The position numbers and the translations under genes are program-made. This document shows, piece after piece, positions 39,500-50,056 of a DNA stretch of 64,000 nt (position 1 is its first letter; each line of letters opens with the position of its first letter). This DNA is from Ktedonospora formicarum (GTDB taxonomy: Bacteria; Chloroflexota; Ktedonobacteria; Ktedonobacterales; Ktedonobacteraceae), in assembly GCF_016587355.1 (NCBI RefSeq), contig NZ_BNJF01000001.1, forward strand, positions 3,189,721 to 3,253,720. The letters are read 5' to 3'. A model generated the notes under the pieces. The model was not told where the DNA came from, did not search any database, and was given only the letters and a program-made list of their open reading frames with translations.

Positions 39500-40690
<1,191 letters not shown>

Positions 40691-40854
40691 TTACCTTGAA
40701 TGTAACTCTTCAGGTTGTGCTAGCCTGTTGCCTATTGTCTCATGAGAGTCAAGATTCTGGTGTTTGATCTCGAGCCGCGAATGCGCCAAAAAGCACAAGA
40801 TATGAAATATACATAAAAATATGAAGAGATATGTACATAATCGGCGTAAAACTC

Positions 40855-40883
40855 TTGAAAATCAAGTAAAGATAGTGTATGCT
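40855..40883 (+). promoter_or_regulatory. Candidate sigma-70-type promoter of the zinc-ribbon protein gene.
   Basis: TTGAAA, a 17-nt spacer, then TATGCT. This leaves a ~150-nt GC-rich leader before a TTG start with a perfect TAAGGAGGT Shine-Dalgarno. Confidence 0.4.
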
Positions 40884-41033
40884 GTTTCCCGGTATCCCAT
40901 CTCGGTCTCGCGTACGGTGCTCGTCCAGAGTTTACATACTTCCCTCGCTGGTAAGGGGAAAGAACCACTGGTGACATCTGCTAGGAGAAGGACCTGGAGG
41001 TTTACCATTCATTCACTCTAAGGAGGTCCCTAG

Positions 41034-41342
41034 TTGAGCTTCGTTGACAAAACCCTGAAGTGCCGTGATTGCGGAAATGATTTCGTCTTCACTGCCGGAG
41101 AGCAAGAGTTTTACCAGCAAAAGGGCTTGATGAACCAGCCGAGTCGTTGCCGCCCCTGCCGTGAGGCGCGCCGCAACTCAATGGGTTCTACTGGTCGTTC
41201 CGAGCGTGCCCCGCGAGAGATGCACACCGTTATTTGTGCCGAGTGCGGTACCGAGACGCAGGTTCCTTTCCTTCCTACGAAGGATCGCCCAGTCTATTGC
41301 AGCTCCTGCTTTGATAAAGTACGTGGAGTTGCCCGCAGCTAA
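41034..41342 (+). CDS. Small protein with two CxxC...CxxC zinc-ribbon units (zf-trcl-like); possibly nucleic-acid binding.
   Basis: CRDCGNDFVFTAGEQEFYQQKG..PSRCRPCR and CAECGTETQVPFLPTKDRPVYCSSC. TTG start with a strong Shine-Dalgarno. Confidence 0.6.
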   Translation: MSFVDKTLKCRDCGNDFVFTAGEQEFYQQKGLMNQPSRCRPCREARRNSMGSTGRSERAPREMHTVICAECGTETQVPFLPTKDRPVYCSSCFDKVRGVARS

Positions 41343-42502
41343 AGCGCGCACAGGAAGCGAGCGTTTATTTGAAAGAGAAGACCCGATATCGCTTTCAGCG
41401 AGGCGGCTTGCGGCTTGCATGAGACGCTGTGGCGCTTATGAGCAAGGACGCGATAGTATGCTCTACACTGAGGCAGCATATAGAAATCTTATCTATTCAT
41501 AACCTCTCGTTTTCAGCTACATAACAAAGGGCTAGATTGGGGTATGTTCTCGATCTAGCTTTTTACTTTTGTGCTAATATAGTGGTGTTATACGGCTTTA
41601 CTAGCCAATTGATGTAGTTCTACCATGAGATGGTATGTTAGCGCTCTTAGGGCTTGTCAAGCCATTTGTCTGCATGATGCCGAATGTCATACCACATATC
41701 ATTTATGGCAGGGCTTTGTTGACGCTTGAGCTCGTCTTGTCGTTTTTGTTCTTCCAGCGGCAAAGATTTACGCTTCTGCTTGAACAAGAAGAGTATCAAG
41801 AAGCCGAGTCCTGTTATAAGGAAGGTGCTAACGATTGCCGCGTTCCCATCCCCTATTTTGATTGTGCTTCCTAATAGCAGCACCAATAGTAGCTCCCAGG
41901 ACAAGAACTGCAATCTCGATATACTTCATGTTCCCCTCCAGAGGTATTATTATGCGCTCTTTTGCAGTAATGTATATGCTACCTATTTCGGACGAGGACA
42001 GGAGCTAAAGATCAAATATACATGTCAGCACACTTTTTGCGTACTAGCCTGCTCAGAATCCCTTGCGAACAGACAATGCTATGCGTCTTGAGTGAAGGAT
42101 TCTCATTTACTCTTCGGAAGATCTCACATTACAGTGGCTTGCAGCGTGAAAGTGTGTGCTCTGAGATGTTTCAAATCCGAAGAGGTAATACTCATCAATA
42201 ATTAAGCATGCAAGCAGGATATACTAGGAATATAGTGACGTGTTGGCGCGTTTAAACGTATTACAAGGTAAGACTACTGTACCTCCTTGATCGGTTGTGC
42301 GCGCTGACTACACACCTGAGCTTTTTAATTTTTGCTCTTCTGTGGAGTCTTAGCTTGACAGAGGGGTACCGCACTTTATAATAAAGTAATAAGTCCTCAA
42401 ATGAAAACCAATGGCACTATTGTCACTTGTGCTTATGTATTCAGGTTTTCAAAAAAGGAGTACACCCATTACTCGTAGACAGAAAGCCCTACCTTCAAGA
42501 GG

Positions 42503-42601
42503 AGGCATTTCTTACGGGTGCTTTGTGTGGGAAGAGACCGCGCAAATAGGTCTTGCCACAAAATGAAAAGGTATATCACGAAGCACCCGTAAGAAATGCC
42601 T
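42503..42601. repeat. 21-bp perfect inverted repeat with a 57-bp spacer (MITE-like, or a long structured-RNA stem).
   Basis: aggcatttcttacgggtgctt ...57 nt... aagcacccgtaagaaatgcct. The spacer carries an inner agacc/ggtct pair. Confidence 0.6.
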
Positions 42602-42697
42602 TCTCTCCCACTTTTATCGCTATTTTGTAAGGTCGGGGAAAATATCCGGTATTTAGAGCGAGAGAAAATGGGGAGAGCGTAATTGCTCGTGTCCCAG

Positions 42698-42796
42698 GGC
42701 TTATGCGAAAATCACACTCTTGGGAAAGGTTACCTCGAGGTAGAACAGAGAGACCGCTGTCGTGGCGAGCGCTCATATGTTCAGATTTTCAAAGGG
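42698..42796. repeat. Dispersed palindromic repeat family copy in the rel 5' region.
   Basis: ggcttatgcgaaaatc ... gctcatatgttcagattttcaaaggg. Confidence 0.55.
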
Positions 42797-42950
42797 GGCG
42801 AGCACTGGGTTACAGTATGGATTGAAAGAATGCAGCCGAGAAGGATGTCAATATACGCTTCCTGTGACGTACTTGGCTGAAGGGTTTGACTTGTCGGGAT
42901 ATTACATGGCTACCAATTTTGAGAGAAGCATCCAAGATTCGGAGAGGACA

Positions 42951-45293
42951 ATGATCCTGAAAACGGGAGAATCTCAAACGAATCTAGCACCTTCACAGAT
43001 GACAATTGAAGATTTGCTTACCGAAGCGCGCCAGTATCTCTCTGAGAGTGACCTGGAACGAATAAGGTGTGCCTATGAACTGGCAAAAGAGGCGCACAAG
43101 GGCGTTGTGCGCAAGTCAGGTGAGCCATATATCCAGCATCCCCTGGAGGTCGCGTTGCTATTAGCGGGCATGCGTATCGATGCTGAAGGCATTATGGCGG
43201 CATTACTTCATGATGTCGTAGAGGATACTGATGCTTCCTTAGAAGAGCTTAGGGAACAGTTTGGTAGCCAGGTGGCGAGCATTGTTGATGGGGTCACCAA
43301 GTTTGATGCACTGGCTGGAAAGCCCGGCAATACTTCTCCTCAACTAGGAAAAGAGCCTATTCCCGTGGAGCCACCTCCCACACTTTCAGTCGTGGATAAG
43401 CGTCGCCAGCGATCCGAAACTGTACGCAAGATGTTGTTGGCGATGGCTGAAGACCCGCGCGTTGTCGTGCTCAAACTAGCTGATCGTGTGCATAATATGC
43501 GCACGTTGGCGGCGATGACACCTGCTCAACAGCAGAATAAAACGCGTGAGACGAGCGAGATTTACGCGCCCCTGGCGCGCCGCCTGGGGATGATGCAGGT
43601 GCAGGCTGAGTTAGAAGATCTGGTGCTGTGTTATCAAGATCCTGAGCGGTATGCCTGGCTGAAGCGGGAGGTCGAGGAGGAAGTTCAACGGCGTGAGCCA
43701 TTCATCACTGAAGTCTGCCGTATTCTGAACGGAGAGATGAAACGGGCGGGTATTCATGCCGAGATACAAGCCTGGCGCAAGCATCTGGCGAGTATCAACC
43801 GTAAACTTGGGTATGGTCAACCGACGGCTGGTGATCTTGGTCGTATACACGATCTGGTTTCATTTCGCATTCTTGTGGATACCGATAATGAGTGTTACCT
43901 TGCTCTTGGTCATATTCATGCCCTTTGGCGACCCAAAGATGGCCGTATTAAGGACTTTATCGCGACTCCCAAGCTGAATGGTTACCAATCTCTCCACACT
44001 ACTGTTTTCTGCTTTGATAATCGCCTCGCCGAGATCCAGATTCGTACCCACGATATGCAGCGAACCGCCGAATATGGTATTGCCAGCTATTGGTATCTCA
44101 AAGATCGTATGGTTAGTGAAGAGCCATCACCCAATAGCTGGAAACTCTCATACAAAGAGATGGTTGCCTGGATTGAGCAACTACGGCAATGGCAGCGTGA
44201 ATTGCCTCAGAGCGCGGATGAGTTTGTAGAGGCCGTTAAGGGAGACATCTTTCAAGAACAGATTTTTGTTTTCACCCCCAAGGGTGAGGTCAAGGACCTG
44301 CCACGCGGCTCTACGCCTCTGGATATGGCGTATCGTATTCATACAGATATTGGCGATCATTGCGCCGGGGCGCGCATCATTACCAATATGGATGATACTG
44401 GACGGCTGGTCACACGCCTGGTGCCATTAGACTATGAGCTCAAGGGCGGCGAGATTGTCGATATCATGGTTAATCGAACAGTGCATCCAACGCGCGATTG
44501 GCTTAGCTTCGCGCGAACCGCTGCCGCGCGTAATAAGATCCGTCGCTATCTTAAAACATATGAGCGTGAAATTAACTTGCAGCTTGGTAAGGAGCGCCTT
44601 GATCTTGCGTTGAAGACCGATGGATCTGTTGGTCTGAACGAGCATGTCGAGGAACTTCTGGTGAAGGCGCGTGAGGAAGATAAATCGGGCGACCTGCGCA
44701 AATATGCCAGCTATGAGGATATCTACATTGCTATCGGTCGCGAAGATTTGCATGTAGAAGAGGTGATGAAACACCTTATGCCCTTGGTGCGGCAGATTGG
44801 AATGCTGGTGCAGTCTGAGAATGCTGAGCAGAAGTCAGAGAACGATAATGAGGGGATGGGCGTTGTTAAACTTGCCCAGTGCTGTTGTCCCTTGCCTGGT
44901 GATGAAATAGTTGGTATGCTCAGCCCCAACGAGGGTATGTTTGTACATCGTCGTGATTGTCTACGTGTTAGCAGACAAAGGGAGAATGCCAGGGCTGTTA
45001 TCGACTTGAACTGGCTTCAGATTGAACCCGAAACCTATCTCTCGCCAGTGACGATTGTGGCGCATGATCGTTCCGGATTGCTGCGGGATGTGGCGGCGGT
45101 GGTGGCCGATGCAGGTGTCAATATGACCACAGTTACATCAACCACGAATCCATCTGTCCATAAAGCCGTTATCACGGCTACTCTAGAGGTCGCAGCCACC
45201 GAAGGAGTGCTTGACCAGATCGAGCGTATCCTTCGCCGTCTGCGTCAGGTGAAGAACGTTGTGAGTGTCGAGCGAGCCATCAATACCCGCTAA
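42951..45293 (+). CDS. rel: Bifunctional (p)ppGpp synthetase/hydrolase Rel (RelA/SpoT homolog), full-length with HD, synthetase, TGS, CC and ACT domains.
   Basis: Intact HD motifs (HKG..RKSGEPYIQHPLEV...LLHDVVEDTD; EDPRVVVLKLADRVHNMRTL). Synthetase motifs (FRILVDT, GRIKDFIATPKLNGYQSLHTTV, EIQIRT, RXKD type). C-terminal TGS/ACT. The start is at ATG 42951 (GGAGAGG Shine-Dalgarno); the track ORF begins upstream inside the repeat. Confidence 0.9.
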   Translation: MILKTGESQTNLAPSQMTIEDLLTEARQYLSESDLERIRCAYELAKEAHKGVVRKSGEPYIQHPLEVALLLAGMRIDAEGIMAALLHDVVEDTDASLEELREQFGSQVASIVDGVTKFDALAGKPGNTSPQLGKEPIPVEPPPTLSVVDKRRQRSETVRKMLLAMAEDPRVVVLKLADRVHNMRTLAAMTPAQQQNKTRETSEIYAPLARRLGMMQVQAELEDLVLCYQDPERYAWLKREVEEEVQRREPFITEVCRILNGEMKRAGIHAEIQAWRKHLASINRKLGYGQPTAGDLGRIHDLVSFRILVDTDNECYLALGHIHALWRPKDGRIKDFIATPKLNGYQSLHTTVFCFDNRLAEIQIRTHDMQRTAEYGIASYWYLKDRMVSEEPSPNSWKLSYKEMVAWIEQLRQWQRELPQSADEFVEAVKGDIFQEQIFVFTPKGEVKDLPRGSTPLDMAYRIHTDIGDHCAGARIITNMDDTGRLVTRLVPLDYELKGGEIVDIMVNRTVHPTRDWLSFARTAAARNKIRRYLKTYEREINLQLGKERLDLALKTDGSVGLNEHVEELLVKAREEDKSGDLRKYASYEDIYIAIGREDLHVEEVMKHLMPLVRQIGMLVQSENAEQKSENDNEGMGVVKLAQCCCPLPGDEIVGMLSPNEGMFVHRRDCLRVSRQRENARAVIDLNWLQIEPETYLSPVTIVAHDRSGLLRDVAAVVADAGVNMTTVTSTTNPSVHKAVITATLEVAATEGVLDQIERILRRLRQVKNVVSVERAINTR

Positions 45294-45823
45294 GTGTATA
45301 TGTGCATATTTGCGGGTATTGGTGCTACGAGATAAATGTCAGGATAAGCCTGGCGCTCAAAGAGCATTTGATAACGTACAGAACATAGTGCCTACACTGA
45401 GAGCTCAATTCTTCAAGGCATCTTCATAAGTGATGCTGCTTTACACTAGCTACATATGAACTACAGTTTCCCACCACGTAATTTGTCCTAGCCCATAAGA
45501 CGTGCGCGAGTGTATCCTTGTCATAAGGTGTACTACTATATGCTAATGTGTGGTTGGTATTGGATGTTTCTGGCTGTTTTGATTGTTTATATCTATGGGA
45601 GGGCCCGTAGGAAGATTGTCGTGTTAAATGGGCCTGTAGGGGCGCTGTGTTCAACAACATCTAATGTCAAACGTATACTAAGCAGAGTGCAAGTTACCAG
45701 GGATGGTTTTCATGTGAGTGGTGCTCGAATATCTACTACAAGGCTAAGATATGCATGGCTATGCCGTCTTACCAGATATTGGGTAGATATTTTTCAGTAG
45801 AACTCACTAAACAAAGAACTACT

Positions 45824-48307
45824 ATGATTCACATAGAGAAACACGTGGCACTTCATAACGAAACTACCACACAAATTGCTTCATTACGCCAGCAAATACG
45901 CACCTACATGTCAGACGACGATGTAGCAATGGTTGAACGCGCACTTCACCTGGTATTAGAGGCTTGTGGCATTGTAGAGGCTGGAGAGCGTCTGGTGCCT
46001 CCCCTTGAGTATGCGTTAGGCATCGCAGATATCCTCGCAAGCATGCATATGGATGCTGCAGGTGTTGCCGCTGGCTTGGTCTTTGAGGCCGCCGACGCTG
46101 ATCTGGTAAGTCTGGAAGAGATTGAGGAGGGTGTTGGGAGCGCAACGTCGCGCGTGGTTGGTAGCATGGAGCGTTTCAACATTCTGGAGCGCAAGAAGAT
46201 GAACGCGACCGCCGCCAGTGTTGCCTTGAGCGCGCAGAATGTCCAGACTTCAGCTATCAAGAAGGGCCATGACGAGAGGGAAGAGGGAGGAACAAGCTCA
46301 GCGAGCGAGAAGAAGCCTCGCGTACGAGAAGCCTTGCGTCGTCAGCAGGCCGAAACAGTCCGTAAGATGTTTGTGGCAATGGCGGAGGACCCGCGTGTCG
46401 TCTCCCTTAAACTAGCATACAGGCTTTTTGTGATGCGCCATATGTCCCAACCTGATTACCAGGGGGATCGACAAGAGATGCTAGCGACGGCTGAGGAGAC
46501 GCGCGAGATTTATGCACCCCTGGCTGGTCGCCTGGGTATGTCTCGAGTTGAAGGCGAGCTCGAAGATCTGACATTCCAGCTTTTGGAGCCTGAGAAGTAT
46601 CAATGGGTGAAGGGCATTGTCGAGGCTGAGAGAATACAATGGCGTTCTTATGTCGATCAGGTGTGTGAGATTCTCAGGAATGAAATGAAGGCTATAGGCG
46701 TGAGAGCCGAGGTTTCAGGACGCGTGAAGCGGTATTATAGCTTTTATCGCAAGCTAGAGCGCAATGCGGGCGACGTGGATGGCGATTTTGAGGTTTTGAA
46801 GGAAACCGCAGATGTGAATCAGATCCATGACCTGATAGCTTTTCGTATCCTGGTCGATACCACCCCTGATTGCTATGTCGCCTTGGGACATGTGCATAGC
46901 CTCTGGAAACCCAAGGAAGGGCGTATCAAGGACTATATCGCGAATCCCAAGCCTAATGGCTATAGCGCGCTTCATACGACTGTTTTCTGTCAGGATAATC
47001 AGCTTGTCGAGATTCAGATACGCACGCATACGATGCATGAGATGGCGGAATATGGCGTTGCTATGCATTGGCACTATAAGGATGTTGGCGACAATGCCTC
47101 CTCAACCGCTAAGGAACTTCTGACCTGGATTAACCAACTGGCTGAGTGGCAGCATGAAATCAAGGCCGCTGATGGCAGCGATTCGGATTTTGTTGATGCT
47201 ATCAAGGATGACCTATTTCAGGAACAAATCTTCATTTTTACGCCAAAAGGAGAGGTGAAGGACCTGCCGGTTGGCTCAACACCACTGGATTTTGCCTATC
47301 GTATCCACAGCAAAATAGGTGATAGTTGCGCGGGTGCGCGCATCATTACTCATGCCGAAGGACCTGATGGTGGTCGTCTCCTGACTCGGATGGTGCCTCT
47401 AGATTATGAGCTGAAGAGCGGGGAGATCGTTGACATTGTTACCAATCGCACGGCGCATCCTACACGCGATTGGCTCAGCTTCGCACGGACTGCTGCCGCA
47501 CGCAATAAAATTCGCCGCTATCTCAAGATTCATGAGCGCGATATCAATATCCAGATTGGTAAGGAGCGCCTCGATAAGGTGATTAAGGCAATTGCGGGTC
47601 TGCGTGGGATGGAGGTGATTACCGAGGATTTAGAGAACTGGCTTTGCCAGGAACTCCATATGGACTCGTTTGAGGATATCCTTTCCGCCATTGGCGCGGA
47701 TGATATGAGACCCCATGGTGTCGCGGTCAAGATTCAGGAGTACTTCCAGGGGCGTGAGGGGCGTGAGAATAGAGAAGAGTCCGAAGAGCCTGTACTACCT
47801 ACCGTTAATCGGCAACCCGCTGCTAATCTGCAAGTAGCAGGTGTAGATGGTTTGTTGACCCGGTTGGCGAATTGCTGTTGCCCCTTGCCTGGAGACGAGA
47901 TTGCCGGTTTTATTAGTCGAGGCAAGGGCGTGATTGTCCATCGCGCGGATTGCCCTAATGTCGTGCGTTTACGCGAGCGTAGTGGGGAACGCTTTATTAC
48001 AGTGAGTTGGCAAGGTATGAGCCAGCCACGCTATCATGTTCCTATTATTGTCTTCGCGCGTGATCGCGCAGGCTTGATACGCGATATCGCTACCGCCATC
48101 TCCGAATATGGGTTGAACCTGCTGGCAATCAATACGCATGCTAATAGCCATCAAGAGCGCATTCTCGTCACTGCAACACTGGAGATGAATGACCTTGAAG
48201 TGATGCCACGTGTCTTTAAACGCCTGGAGAAGGTCAAAGATGTGTTGCAAGTAGAGCGCGATATGGGACATAAACGGGCGCCATTGTCCTCAGGAGCAGA
48301 TGCATAG
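45824..48307 (+). CDS. RelA/SpoT-family (p)ppGpp synthetase paralog with a degenerate (probably inactive) HD hydrolase domain.
   Basis: It has the same domain order as rel, with intact synthetase motifs (FRILVDT, GRIKDYIANPKPNGYSALHTTV, EIQIRT). The HD motifs are lost: HP becomes PP, LLHDVVEDTD becomes LVFEAADAD, and LADRVHNMRT becomes LAYRLFVMRH. The start is uncertain (ATG 45755, 45761 or 45824). Confidence 0.85.
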   Translation: MIHIEKHVALHNETTTQIASLRQQIRTYMSDDDVAMVERALHLVLEACGIVEAGERLVPPLEYALGIADILASMHMDAAGVAAGLVFEAADADLVSLEEIEEGVGSATSRVVGSMERFNILERKKMNATAASVALSAQNVQTSAIKKGHDEREEGGTSSASEKKPRVREALRRQQAETVRKMFVAMAEDPRVVSLKLAYRLFVMRHMSQPDYQGDRQEMLATAEETREIYAPLAGRLGMSRVEGELEDLTFQLLEPEKYQWVKGIVEAERIQWRSYVDQVCEILRNEMKAIGVRAEVSGRVKRYYSFYRKLERNAGDVDGDFEVLKETADVNQIHDLIAFRILVDTTPDCYVALGHVHSLWKPKEGRIKDYIANPKPNGYSALHTTVFCQDNQLVEIQIRTHTMHEMAEYGVAMHWHYKDVGDNASSTAKELLTWINQLAEWQHEIKAADGSDSDFVDAIKDDLFQEQIFIFTPKGEVKDLPVGSTPLDFAYRIHSKIGDSCAGARIITHAEGPDGGRLLTRMVPLDYELKSGEIVDIVTNRTAHPTRDWLSFARTAAARNKIRRYLKIHERDINIQIGKERLDKVIKAIAGLRGMEVITEDLENWLCQELHMDSFEDILSAIGADDMRPHGVAVKIQEYFQGREGRENREESEEPVLPTVNRQPAANLQVAGVDGLLTRLANCCCPLPGDEIAGFISRGKGVIVHRADCPNVVRLRERSGERFITVSWQGMSQPRYHVPIIVFARDRAGLIRDIATAISEYGLNLLAINTHANSHQERILVTATLEMNDLEVMPRVFKRLEKVKDVLQVERDMGHKRAPLSSGADA

Positions 48308-48667
48308 CGAAGCACCGAAGTGGTCTATATTGTGTGGTAGATGTTGGTCCAAGTGAGAGCGAGAAAAAATCCCTGGTGTGGGCTGCCTCTGGAAAAGAAC
48401 AATGAAGCTTGGTTTGGTAGAAGGAATGTATGGAGGACAACCACCAGGGATTGCCTTTATTATAAGCAACATTCTTGCATCTGTATATTGCTAGATATGG
48501 CTAGATTCTGCCTTGCCCCAACTGAAAGTATAAGTAGCTACTACTTGCCAGATGTTTGGGCTCAGAAATAGGTATCAGGAAGCAGGAAATTCCCGCGTAA
48601 GAGTGACTGGTTGGGAGACTGTCGCTCGCAAGGCGTTTGGCTCGGTTAGGTGTAGAGCTATAAATAC

Positions 48668-48727
48668 TAGTAAGCCCCCACAGGAGGAGAGGCCAGGATC
48701 AGGTGACCCTCCCCTCCTGTGGGGGCT
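48668..48727. terminator. GC-rich 18-bp perfect hairpin between relA-like and the sigma factor gene; a probable terminator for the minus-strand sigma gene.
   Basis: gtaagcccccacaggagg / cctcctgtgggggcttac with a 23-nt loop, about 70 bp after the sigA stop. Confidence 0.5.
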
Positions 48728-48793
48728 TACTAACACACTATGTTGTGTAATATGCCTGCTCATGCAGCATAGAAATTCATGTTGAATGACTGA

Positions 48794-50056
48794 CTAGCCT
48801 CGTAAACGCTCTAAGACGGGTGGTTGGCGTAATTTTGCAAGCGCACCCGCTTCGATCTGGCGGACGCGTTCGCGCGTAATACCGAGTTCGCGGCCAACCT
48901 GTTCTAGAGGATGGGCCTGACCGTTTCCCAGCCCGAAGCGCAACTGAAGTACGAGCTGCTCGCGCGGGGTTAACACTGACGCAAGTACGCGCTGTACCTC
49001 ATCTTTGAGTGTCTGGGTTGTCGCCAGTTCTTCTGGTGATGCCGAATCGGTGTCGGGAAGCACATCACCTAATTCCTGATCATCATCTTCACCCACAGGA
49101 AGTTCCAGCGAGACAGGAGCGCCAGGAGCGGCCTGTAGCTCAATCATGCGCACGGGATCAAGCCCAGTAGCCTCGGCCAATTCTTGTTCACTGGGTTCGC
49201 GTCCAAGCTCTTGTAGAAGGCGCTGACGTTCACGGCGAATACGGTTGAGGGCTGTATTCACATAGACTGGCAGGCGAATGGTGCGCCCTTTGTCTGCGAC
49301 GGCGCGGCTGATGGCCTGGCGAATCCACCATGTCGCGTGTGTAGAGAAGCGGTGCCCACGACGCCAATCATAGCGCTGTACAGCGCGGATGAGACCAATA
49401 TTGCCTTCTTGAATAAGATCCAGCAGGGTCAGTCCGCGTCCGACATAGCGTTTCGCGATGCTGACGACCAGGCGTAGGTTCGCGAGAATGAATTGCTTCA
49501 TCGCGTCACGATCTCCCGCCTCGATATGCTGAGCCAATTCCACCTCACGCTCATGCGTAATCATGGGGACGCGTCCAATTTCTCGCAGATATGTCATAAC
49601 CGCATCAGATTCGCCTGCATCGGCCCCATTAACGACATTCTCTTCCTGATCTTCAGAGCGACGGCGGCGATTTGCGGGACGGCGCGTAGCAGGCTGAGCG
49701 GTAGTTGACGTGATTGTGGGAAGTGTGAGAAGAGTCTCGTCAATATCTGCGGCATGAGAATCCAGGTGCTCTTCATCCACCCCTTCTTCATCATGAAGAT
49801 CTTCAACAAGTGCTGAATCGTCATCTAAATCGAGAGGCGCAGTGTCTGAAAGATCGTGGTCTAAATCCAGATGATCCTCGCTCAATTCTGCGTCTTCGTT
49901 TGTCTCTTCTCTCCCCGCTTCCACTGGTGTATGTGGAAGATTCTTGGTAAGCAATTGTTCAACGATGGTATCGTAGGATTGCTTCTCCGAATCTGATTTT
50001 TTGCGAGATGTATTACCAAGCGTATTTCCCGTCATGGCACGCTTTACGTCTATCAT
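48794..50056 (-). CDS. sigA: RNA polymerase sigma-70 family factor (group 1/2, SigA-like) with a long acidic N-terminal region.
   Basis: Region 2 ...LIQEGNIGLIRAVQRYDWRRGHRFSTHATWWIRQAISRAVADKGRTIRLP. Region 4.2 LTPREQLVLQLRFGL...LEQVGRELGITRERVRQIEAGALAKLR. The N-terminal D/E-rich ~170 aa is like region 1.1. Confidence 0.85.
   Translation of the reverse strand: MIDVKRAMTGNTLGNTSRKKSDSEKQSYDTIVEQLLTKNLPHTPVEAGREETNEDAELSEDHLDLDHDLSDTAPLDLDDDSALVEDLHDEEGVDEEHLDSHAADIDETLLTLPTITSTTAQPATRRPANRRRRSEDQEENVVNGADAGESDAVMTYLREIGRVPMITHEREVELAQHIEAGDRDAMKQFILANLRLVVSIAKRYVGRGLTLLDLIQEGNIGLIRAVQRYDWRRGHRFSTHATWWIRQAISRAVADKGRTIRLPVYVNTALNRIRRERQRLLQELGREPSEQELAEATGLDPVRMIELQAAPGAPVSLELPVGEDDDQELGDVLPDTDSASPEELATTQTLKDEVQRVLASVLTPREQLVLQLRFGLGNGQAHPLEQVGRELGITRERVRQIEAGALAKLRQPPVLERLRG

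Follow-up and report, generated by a model that had tools for sequence, protein, structure and literature searches.

Tandem RelA/SpoT homologues of the Ktedonobacteria: a probable ancient split into hydrolase-biased and synthetase-only copies

The tandem pair and its catalytic domains

We examined a 64-kb window of Ktedonospora formicarum (class Ktedonobacteria, phylum Chloroflexota) containing two full-length RelA/SpoT-homologue (RSH) genes, here termed copy 1 and copy 2, which lie head to tail on the + strand with the same domain order, and we report their sequence features, conservation, synteny and tree position. All coordinates are those of the window, the whole stretch of DNA analysed. 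The maximal open reading frames (ORFs) run from 42762 to 45293 for copy 1 (843 aa) and from 45755 to 48307 for copy 2 (850 aa), both on the + strand, which agrees with a sequence-only reading of this DNA that had described two adjacent long RSH genes of about 845 aa. Conservation of the N-termini with Ktedonobacter suggests that the real starts are the ATG at 42906 for copy 1 ('MATNFE', 795 aa) and the ATG at 45824 for copy 2 ('MIHIEKH', 827 aa); an in-frame stop is present in Ktedonobacter upstream of the position matching the copy 2 start. The start previously proposed for copy 1, at 42951 (M64), falls inside this conserved N-terminus, and the proposed gap of 460 bp holds between the maximal ORFs (461 bp) but becomes 530 bp from the likely starts. 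The NCBI model of copy 2 (P0001) has 820 aa and begins at V31 of the maximal ORF. Copy 2 is 100% identical to a K. formicarum protein annotated as '(p)ppGpp synthetase', and the two copies are 44% identical to each other over 828 aligned columns. The features of the pair are as follows.

42906 to 45293, + strand: copy 1, long RSH whose hydrolase site is intact and whose synthetase site is atypical; likely coding sequence of 795 aa
43071 to 43592, + strand: copy 1 HD domain, with H126, H150, D151, E154, D155, D241 and N245 (843-aa numbering), all canonical
43770 to 44105, + strand: copy 1 SYNTH domain, with A337, W338, Y443 and L446 aligned to E. coli RelA G251, R252 (RelSeq R241), H354 and Y357; D364 and E424 are kept
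45824 to 48307, + strand: copy 2, long RSH in which a pseudo-hydrolase domain accompanies a canonical RXKD synthetase; likely coding sequence of 827 aa
45908 to 46540, + strand: copy 2 pseudo-HD domain, in which Y86, F110, E111, D114, A115, Y222 and V226 replace H53, H77, D78, E81, D82, D144 and N148
46244 to 46318, + strand: core of an enlarged loop in the pseudo-HD domain, variable and predicted to be disordered, located where E. coli RelA has its 'H-loop' (residues 114-130)
46718 to 47083, + strand: copy 2 SYNTH domain, with canonical R323, K325, D359, R364, R390-x-K392-D393, E419 and H438
47228 to 47443, + strand: copy 2 TGS domain, whose His518 aligns with E. coli RelA H432 (His in 78/78 orthologues)
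48029 to 48259, + strand: copy 2 ACT (RRM) domain, Pfam ACT_4, 57.9 bits

Pfam found HD_4, RelA_SpoT, TGS, RelA_AH_RIS and ACT_4 in both proteins, bearing out the identical domain order read from the letters. The scores were 170 bits for HD_4 and 97.8 bits for RelA_SpoT in copy 1, and 126.7 bits for RelA_SpoT in copy 2. Both proteins passed the NCBIfam model TIGR00691 'RelA/SpoT family' (spoT_relA subfamily; cut-off 499.2 bits), copy 1 with 601.9 and copy 2 with 526.8 bits. Neither reached the RelA equivalog NF008124 (479.6 bits for copy 2 and 397 for copy 1, against a cut-off of 728) or the SpoT equivalog NF008303 (508.2 for copy 1 and 440 for copy 2, against 947). Copy 1 preferred the SpoT model to the RelA model (508 vs 397 bits) and copy 2 the RelA model to the SpoT model (480 vs 440). 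Both proteins matched solved structures of RelA and Rel with E values of 1e-127 to 1e-139, the best for copy 1 being Mycobacterium smegmatis Rel (8fr8; 470 bits, E = 1.7e-139) and for copy 2 the ribosome-bound E. coli RelA (5iqr; 427.7 bits, E = 7e-127), with M. smegmatis Rel at 401.5 bits.

Hydrolase columns were numbered by RelSeq (H53, H77, D78, E81, D82, D144 and N148) in BLAST and MAFFT alignments, and copy 2 columns were counted in 78 orthologous sequences. All seven residues are replaced in copy 2 of K. formicarum, which has the motifs LVFEAADAD and LAYRLFVMRH where copy 1 has LLHDVVEDT and LADRVHNMRT. The earlier claim that every HD signature of copy 2 is replaced stands in this respect, except that its 'PP for HP' was out of register, as both alignments place Tyr86 ('PPLEYAL') in the H53 column. 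Six of the seven columns are changed clade-wide and the replacements are themselves near-invariant, with F/Y at H77, E at D78 (78/78), D at E81 (78/78), A at D82 (74/78), Y at D144 (78/78) and A/V/T at N148, a pattern that does not resemble random decay. Because the replacements are so strictly conserved and include potential ligands (E111, D114 and Y222), and because 65/78 orthologues have His in the H53 column where K. formicarum has Tyr, copy 2 could be proposed to hydrolyse (p)ppGpp still, through a non-canonical site formed by this His and the conserved Glu, Asp and Tyr. We regard such an activity as very improbable: the Mn ligands H77, D78 and D144 are replaced in every orthologue, and all four ligands in K. 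formicarum, the catalytic ED and N148 residues are lost too, and similar degeneration yields a hydrolase-inactive RelA (PMC8012599, PMC9974481).

Although catalytically degenerate, the pseudo-HD domain of copy 2 appears to be still under constraint, as it is conserved among orthologues (mean identity 64% vs 76% for the HD domain of copy 1) and confidently folded in an AlphaFold2 model of copy 2. This model, built on 49 orthologues, had a mean predicted local distance difference test (pLDDT) score of 66.8, with values of ~85-94 in the pseudo-HD domain, and resembles RelA, Rel and SpoT structures. The loop core (residues 134-158 of P0001) has pLDDT <50, and its flanks are invariant among copy 2 orthologues (N112, L114, E115, R116, K118 and K157-E170). 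The loop is much larger than its counterpart in E. coli RelA, where the H-loop controls synthetase activity (PMC8012599).

The synthetase domain of copy 2 is canonical. Its motifs FRILVDT, GRIKDYIA and EIQIRT are present as the sequence-only reading had quoted them, and the listed SYNTH residues are invariant in 78/78 orthologues with the exception of K392 (K 75/78, R 3/78). Invariance or near-invariance extends to the positions of RelSeq R241, K243, D264, R269, RXKD, Y308, H312, E323 and Q325 and of E. coli RelA G251 and H354. The RXKD motif, claimed earlier as a difference from proteobacterial RelA, was confirmed as R390-I-K392-D393, with R in 78/78, K in 75/78 and D in 78/78 orthologues; E. 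coli RelA has EFDD. The TGS His and three zinc-finger Cys are kept in both copies, and copy 2 has a basic residue (K) at the position of E. coli RelA R629. Given the canonical synthetase site, the TGS His, the zinc-finger Cys and the ACT domain, we infer that copy 2, like Rel and RelA, synthesises (p)ppGpp on starved ribosomes, and we describe it as a predicted hydrolase-degenerate long RSH with an intact RXKD-type synthetase. One could instead see in copy 2 a decaying or purely non-catalytic duplicate, for example a pseudoenzyme scaffold that makes no alarmone, since one of its catalytic domains is already dead and the ACT domain is its least conserved region (52% identity to orthologues). 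This is hard to credit for an ORF that is intact in 78 genomes at 58-82% identity, in which all examined synthetase columns are invariant or near-invariant (78/78; RXKD Lys 75/78) and more than 190 columns are invariant across 49 orthologues.

Copy 1 shows the converse pattern. Its hydrolase set (HHDEDDN) is complete, as had been stated from the letters, with the motifs YIQHPLEV, LLHDVVEDT and LADRVHNMRT, and these residues are conserved in 68-69 of 69 extracted copy 1 sequences, one of which is a mis-assigned copy 2. We screened the synthetase for deviations at columns with >=90% agreement among 140 reference long RSHs, using 68 sequences of the copy 1 clade. The G at E. coli RelA G251 (122/140 references) is A in 56/68 copy 1 sequences and never G; the R at R252 (RelSeq R241; 139/140) is W in 61/68; the H at H354 (139/140) is Y in 68/68; and the Y at Y357 (137/140) is L or M in 66/68. 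The references thus agree at 87-99% at the positions altered in copy 1. In E. coli RelA, G251E abolishes and H354Y lowers ppGpp synthesis (PMC4154780, citing earlier mutagenesis). RelSeq R241 and R269 sandwich the ATP adenine (PMC7983052), and the Arg equivalent to R241 is among the residues changed in the pseudo-SYNTH domain of the hydrolase-only SpoT of Acinetobacter baumannii (PMC9974481). These clade-wide substitutions at otherwise near-invariant synthetase positions make the earlier label of 'bifunctional Rel' insecure for copy 1, whose set of hydrolase residues is complete.

A further substitution was seen in the zinc-finger/RIS region of copy 1, where K. formicarum has Glu (E724 of the 843-aa ORF; 44931-44933) at the position of E. 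coli RelA R629 and 68 orthologues have K, R or Q. The change R629E impairs ribosome recruitment of RelA.

Distribution, origin and a sister lineage

The distribution scan covered one genome per species and 452 relatives of copy 2, with synteny read in the best 80 of the 452. These 80 all belong to the Ktedonobacteria, Thermogemmatispora included, and have 58-82% identity to copy 2. In 78/80 loci, again including Thermogemmatispora, the gene directly preceding copy 2 on its strand is copy 1; three of these upstream matches consist only of a contig-edge remnant or a frame-shift-split gene. One of the two loci without copy 1 upstream is cut at a contig edge. The other (L054:1-4700) has 2.3 kb of upstream sequence and is the sole locus of the 80 with >2 kb upstream and no copy 1 beside copy 2. 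Spacer length varies across loci from a few bases to ~700 bp. This recurrence, together with the strength of the structure matches, places the pair beyond chance. The linkage of the two genes is both old and stable.

We searched copy 2 against a library of 1.84 billion cluster representatives. Its top matches were its own clade (1084 bits) followed by the metagenomic representatives P0123 (677 bits) and P0124 (625 bits); no other lineage in the library comes as close to copy 2 as these two and P0243. Outside the copy 2 clade and P0123, P0124 and P0243, nothing among the 1.84 billion representatives scored >474 bits; copy 1 against copy 2 gives 617 bits. Neighbour-joining (NJ) trees based on Kimura distances, with the 150 best matches to copy 2 as the reference set, joined both copies in one clade (bootstrap 49/50 in a smaller set). 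With tandem pairs from a sister lineage added, the upstream-type clade had a bootstrap of 93/100 and the downstream-type clade 97/100, and the two types grouped together at 70/100 over the full length and 77/100 with the HD domain excluded. Insertions in the HD loop and in TGS are common to both copies and absent from other aligned Rel and SpoT, E. coli RelA having only a short HD-loop insertion.

These trees bear on the proposal that copy 2 is a horizontally transferred proteobacterial RelA that landed by chance beside a resident rel, one of the outcomes that the sequence-only reading had named as overturning its own view. Copy 2 does score slightly better against RelA than against its alternatives (479.6 vs 440 bits in NCBIfam; 427.7 for E. 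coli RelA vs 401.5 for M. smegmatis Rel in the PDB), and its 'FEAADA' resembles the 'FPLADA' of E. coli RelA. This resemblance is not a clade character, however, because RelA-type representatives vary at those HD columns, and copy 2 remains far under the RelA equivalog cut-off (728 bits) with RXKD rather than EXDD. In the NJ tree E. coli RelA falls among other EXDD sequences, away from copy 2, the smallest clade holding both it and copy 2 comprising 79-112 of 170 taxa, while copy 2 is placed with copy 1, with which it shares the insertions. The GC content of copy 2 is like that of its flanks, and its neighbours are housekeeping genes. A horizontal origin is accordingly highly unlikely, and the data support the view that copy 2 does not derive from proteobacterial RelA. 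Because the NJ trees, the library-wide similarity ranking and the shared insertions all join the two copies, away from proteobacterial RelA, the earlier suggestion of an independent, in-lineage tandem duplication with RelA-like hydrolase loss is supported. Most simply, the pair goes back to a single old duplication in tandem, separate from that of the proteobacteria and one that would predate both the Ktedonobacterales/Thermogemmatispora split and the separation of the sister lineage.

Synonymous sites between the copies are saturated. Gene conversion was considered as a cause of the 79% TGS identity between copies and rejected: where residues are identical, the third codon positions have an identity of 0.43 in this domain, within the 0.31-0.70 seen overall, and the best DNA match between the copies is just 68%.

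The sister lineage carries the same arrangement. Tandem RSH pairs were found in three metagenomic contigs (L083:296-4839, L086:10001-14524 and L087:10001-14650), the cluster of P0124 lying in L083; the sister pairs came from GCA_027459785.1, GCA_021778805.1 and ENA contigs, and the upstream protein family comprised 26 clusters. The upstream protein has a perfect HD signature and a disrupted synthetase, in which the catalytic Glu (E323) is D or N in 26/26 clusters, His mostly stands in place of Q325, the G251 position is occupied by Pro, Ala or Ser and the AAHW motif has been lost. The downstream protein combines a degenerate HD domain with a canonical synthetase. Reciprocal loss thus appears complete in the sister lineage, judging by these residues, and the upstream proteins show the SpoT[Hs]-like combination of lost SYNTH residues and an intact HD domain. 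Copy 1 of the Ktedonobacteria, which keeps its catalytic Asp and Glu, does not show this loss of catalytic and substrate-binding SYNTH residues.

P0243 (JGI sample 3300047160, 12.7-kb contig) stands alone and is not adjacent to another RSH. It is a divergent, HD-degenerate member of the copy-2-type clade in which HND replaces RXKD, with no Pfam HD_4 match; a Cas12f1-like_TNB (TnpB-type) gene lies ~6.5 kb upstream on its contig.

Flanking and intergenic sequence

The neighbours of the pair are tgt and genes for a lipoate-protein ligase, a treble-clef zinc-finger protein, an opposite-strand sigma-70 factor, a VTT/DedA-type membrane protein, a dUTPase and two M24 peptidases. GC content around the pair is similar to that of the flanks and there is no island signature. 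The zinc-finger gene (41034-41342, same strand, upstream of the pair) encodes a 102-aa protein with two treble-clef zinc fingers (zf_Tbcl and zf_Tbcl_2). Two further features concern possible regulation.

42355 to 42382, + strand: sigma-70-like promoter candidate upstream of copy 1, TTGACA-16-TATAAT, 12/12 consensus matches
45294 to 45823, + strand: spacer between the copies, with a 45-nt block (45669-45713) 91% identical to Ktedonobacter that overlaps a promoter-like site (45651-45679)

The region upstream of copy 1 (41343-42905, ~1.5 kb) has a slightly lower GC content and is without a coding-like ORF of >=100 aa. It holds short blocks conserved with Ktedonobacter in addition to the 12/12 sigma-70 consensus, which implies a long leader or an unannotated element. 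An Rfam scan of 40500-49500 (E up to 1) found no riboswitch or leader before either gene and no family in the spacer; its only returns were two sub-threshold microRNA-model matches, both on one hairpin. Copy 2 and the sigma-70 gene converge, and the spacer that separates them (48370-48503/48665-48735) contains a 136-nt block 82% identical to Ktedonobacter. The palindromic hairpin lies near this block, matches the two microRNA models on both strands at far sub-threshold scores and is probably a bidirectional terminator.

Division of labour and relation to known long RSHs

We consider that an ancient tandem duplication of Rel, giving a hydrolase-biased copy 1 and a synthetase-only copy 2, best explains these data, with a probability of roughly three in four. 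Under this explanation, an ancestral bifunctional Rel would have undergone tandem duplication before the Ktedonobacteria and the sister lineage diverged, separately from the RelA/SpoT duplication of the beta- and gammaproteobacteria. Copy 2 would have become a synthetase-only stringent factor of the [hS] type, its metal site destroyed and the domain kept as a folded, regulatory pseudo-HD. Copy 1 would supply the hydrolase that a synthetase-only enzyme needs, much as spoT provides the required hydrolase in relA+ E. coli. The synthetase of copy 1 would have been remodelled (G251A, R252W and H354Y in E. coli RelA numbering) and is probably weak or specialised, SpoT-like, while its counterpart in the sister lineage would have gone fully to a pseudo-synthetase. 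Tandem linkage would keep maker and breaker co-inherited. Reciprocal subfunctionalisation into hydrolase-biased and synthetase-only copies is therefore a likely outcome, although all enzyme activities and the ribosome dependence of both copies are read here from sequence.

Several observations weigh against this explanation. Monophyly of the pair rests on distance-based trees with moderate support (70-77%), from a reference set chosen by similarity to copy 2 rather than by taxon and without named Chloroflexota outgroups, and the NJ tree of the C-terminal domains alone did not resolve it. The H53 His persists in most copy 2 orthologues. In K. formicarum the spacer is 530 bp long and has a promoter-like site of its own, which speaks against strict co-transcription. 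Finally, copy 1 retains K243, D264, R269, RXKD, Y308, H312 and E323, its SYNTH identity among orthologues is close to that of copy 2 (81% vs 83%), and the Trp at its R241 position could still stack on adenine. With its catalytic residues kept and the domain well conserved, copy 1 may still be an active synthetase, and we regard this synthetase as altered but not demonstrably dead.

These features of copy 1, to which its TGS His and zinc-finger Cys may be added, would also suit a different scheme, in which copy 1 is an ordinary bifunctional Rel running the stringent response alone and copy 2 is an accessory synthetase for another signal, as proposed for RshB, with no reciprocal loss. Porphyromonas gingivalis employs Rel and RshB together (PMC6994654). 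We find this scheme unlikely, as 61-68 of 68 copy 1 orthologues depart from residues on which 87-99% of the 140 reference long RSHs agree, copy 1 carries the very H354Y substitution that has been reported to lower synthesis by RelA, it scores lower than copy 2 on Pfam RelA_SpoT, and its orthologue in the sister lineage has lost the catalytic Glu.

Like E. coli-type RelA [hS], copy 2 is a long RSH that retains a dead HD domain, has intact synthetase, TGS, zinc-finger and ACT regions and occurs in a genome that also holds a hydrolase-bearing long RSH. It differs from E. coli RelA in having RXKD rather than EXDD, in falling under the NCBIfam RelA cut-off and in grouping with its own neighbour in trees, and the two are not orthologous; its HD replacements are different ones and are fixed, its H-loop is much larger, and it adjoins the gene of its hydrolase partner, unlike in E. 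coli, where relA and spoT are not linked. Copy 1 resembles SpoT [HS] and the SpoT [Hs] of Moraxellaceae (PMC9974481) in combining a perfect HD domain with an altered synthetase that includes the adenine-stacking Arg. It differs from SpoT, in a comparison made by sequence alone, in its score (508 bits against a cut-off of 947), its retained catalytic Asp and Glu and its independent origin; the upstream protein of the sister lineage is analogous to SpoT[Hs] because it has lost the catalytic Glu. Both copies share RXKD with the ancestral type, bifunctional Rel [HS], as in RelSeq and the Rel of M. smegmatis, M. tuberculosis and Bacillus subtilis, from which copy 2 departs in lacking the hydrolase residues and copy 1 in deviating at G251, R252 and H354. 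The subfunctionalisation of RelA[hS], SpoT[HS] and SpoT[Hs] is an established framework, in which the split is explained by restricted conformational states (PMC9974481).

Lineage-specific second long RSHs that arose by Rel duplication are already known, namely RshA in Actinobacteria, RshB in Bacteroidetes, RshC and RshD (Atkinson et al. 2011, PMC3153485), and the HD domain of RshB has diverged in a manner 'similar to that for RelA' (PMC3153485). For Chloroflexi, the same 2011 survey listed no long RSH other than a single Rel[HS], and it included no Ktedonobacteria (PMC3153485). Our pair is like RshA-D in that a second long RSH arose by duplication of Rel within a lineage, and unlike them in its phylum, its conserved tandem arrangement and the changes in both partners. 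Six further long RSHs outside the clade (P0183, P0200, P0204, P0208, P0225 and P0260) apparently combine a degenerate HD domain with RXKD in a fast MAFFT alignment, which points to additional independent losses of the hydrolase. A dead HD domain together with RXKD is therefore not unique and, with RshA-D, these proteins show that an independent origin is not unprecedented. The main interpretation of the sequence-only reading, an independent RelA-like division of labour, is supported. The pair is best filed as an independently arisen long-RSH subgroup with a putative division of labour, new relative to the RshA-D of the 2011 survey; Jimmy et al. 2020 distinguish 13 long-RSH subfamilies. A literature search for Ktedonobacter and ppGpp found no paper on the alarmone enzymes of Ktedonobacteria, its two returns being unrelated work on soil ecology. 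What is new here is that the pair is ancient and linked, that the upstream partner is itself modified and that the sister lineage shows the end state.

Orthologues of both genes carry the public names '(p)ppGpp synthetase', 'RelA/SpoT family protein' and 'bifunctional (p)ppGpp synthetase/hydrolase'. The last of these labels probably misdescribes copy 2, and it may be inaccurate for copy 1 as well.

RelA and SpoT are the classic example of how a bifunctional enzyme can divide into two proteins, one making and the other breaking the same signal. An independent split in a distant phylum, with other replacement residues, RXKD kept, a larger H-loop and a conserved tandem, would provide a natural replicate that can separate the features of RelA required by the loss of hydrolysis from proteobacterial accidents. 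It is possible, with odds a little below even, that the locus represents an independent replay of the whole RelA/SpoT story, caught at two stages and kept as a linked pair, in which the downstream protein became synthetase-only without EXDD and the upstream protein is becoming hydrolase-only, partially in the Ktedonobacteria (Asp and Glu kept) and completely in the sister lineage (Glu lost). If so, these proteins would be natural intermediates showing which substitutions turn a bifunctional Rel into each monofunctional state. Finally, the Ktedonobacteria live in soil as filamentous bacteria that form spores, and their genomes are large; alarmone control of development is of interest in organisms with this lifestyle.

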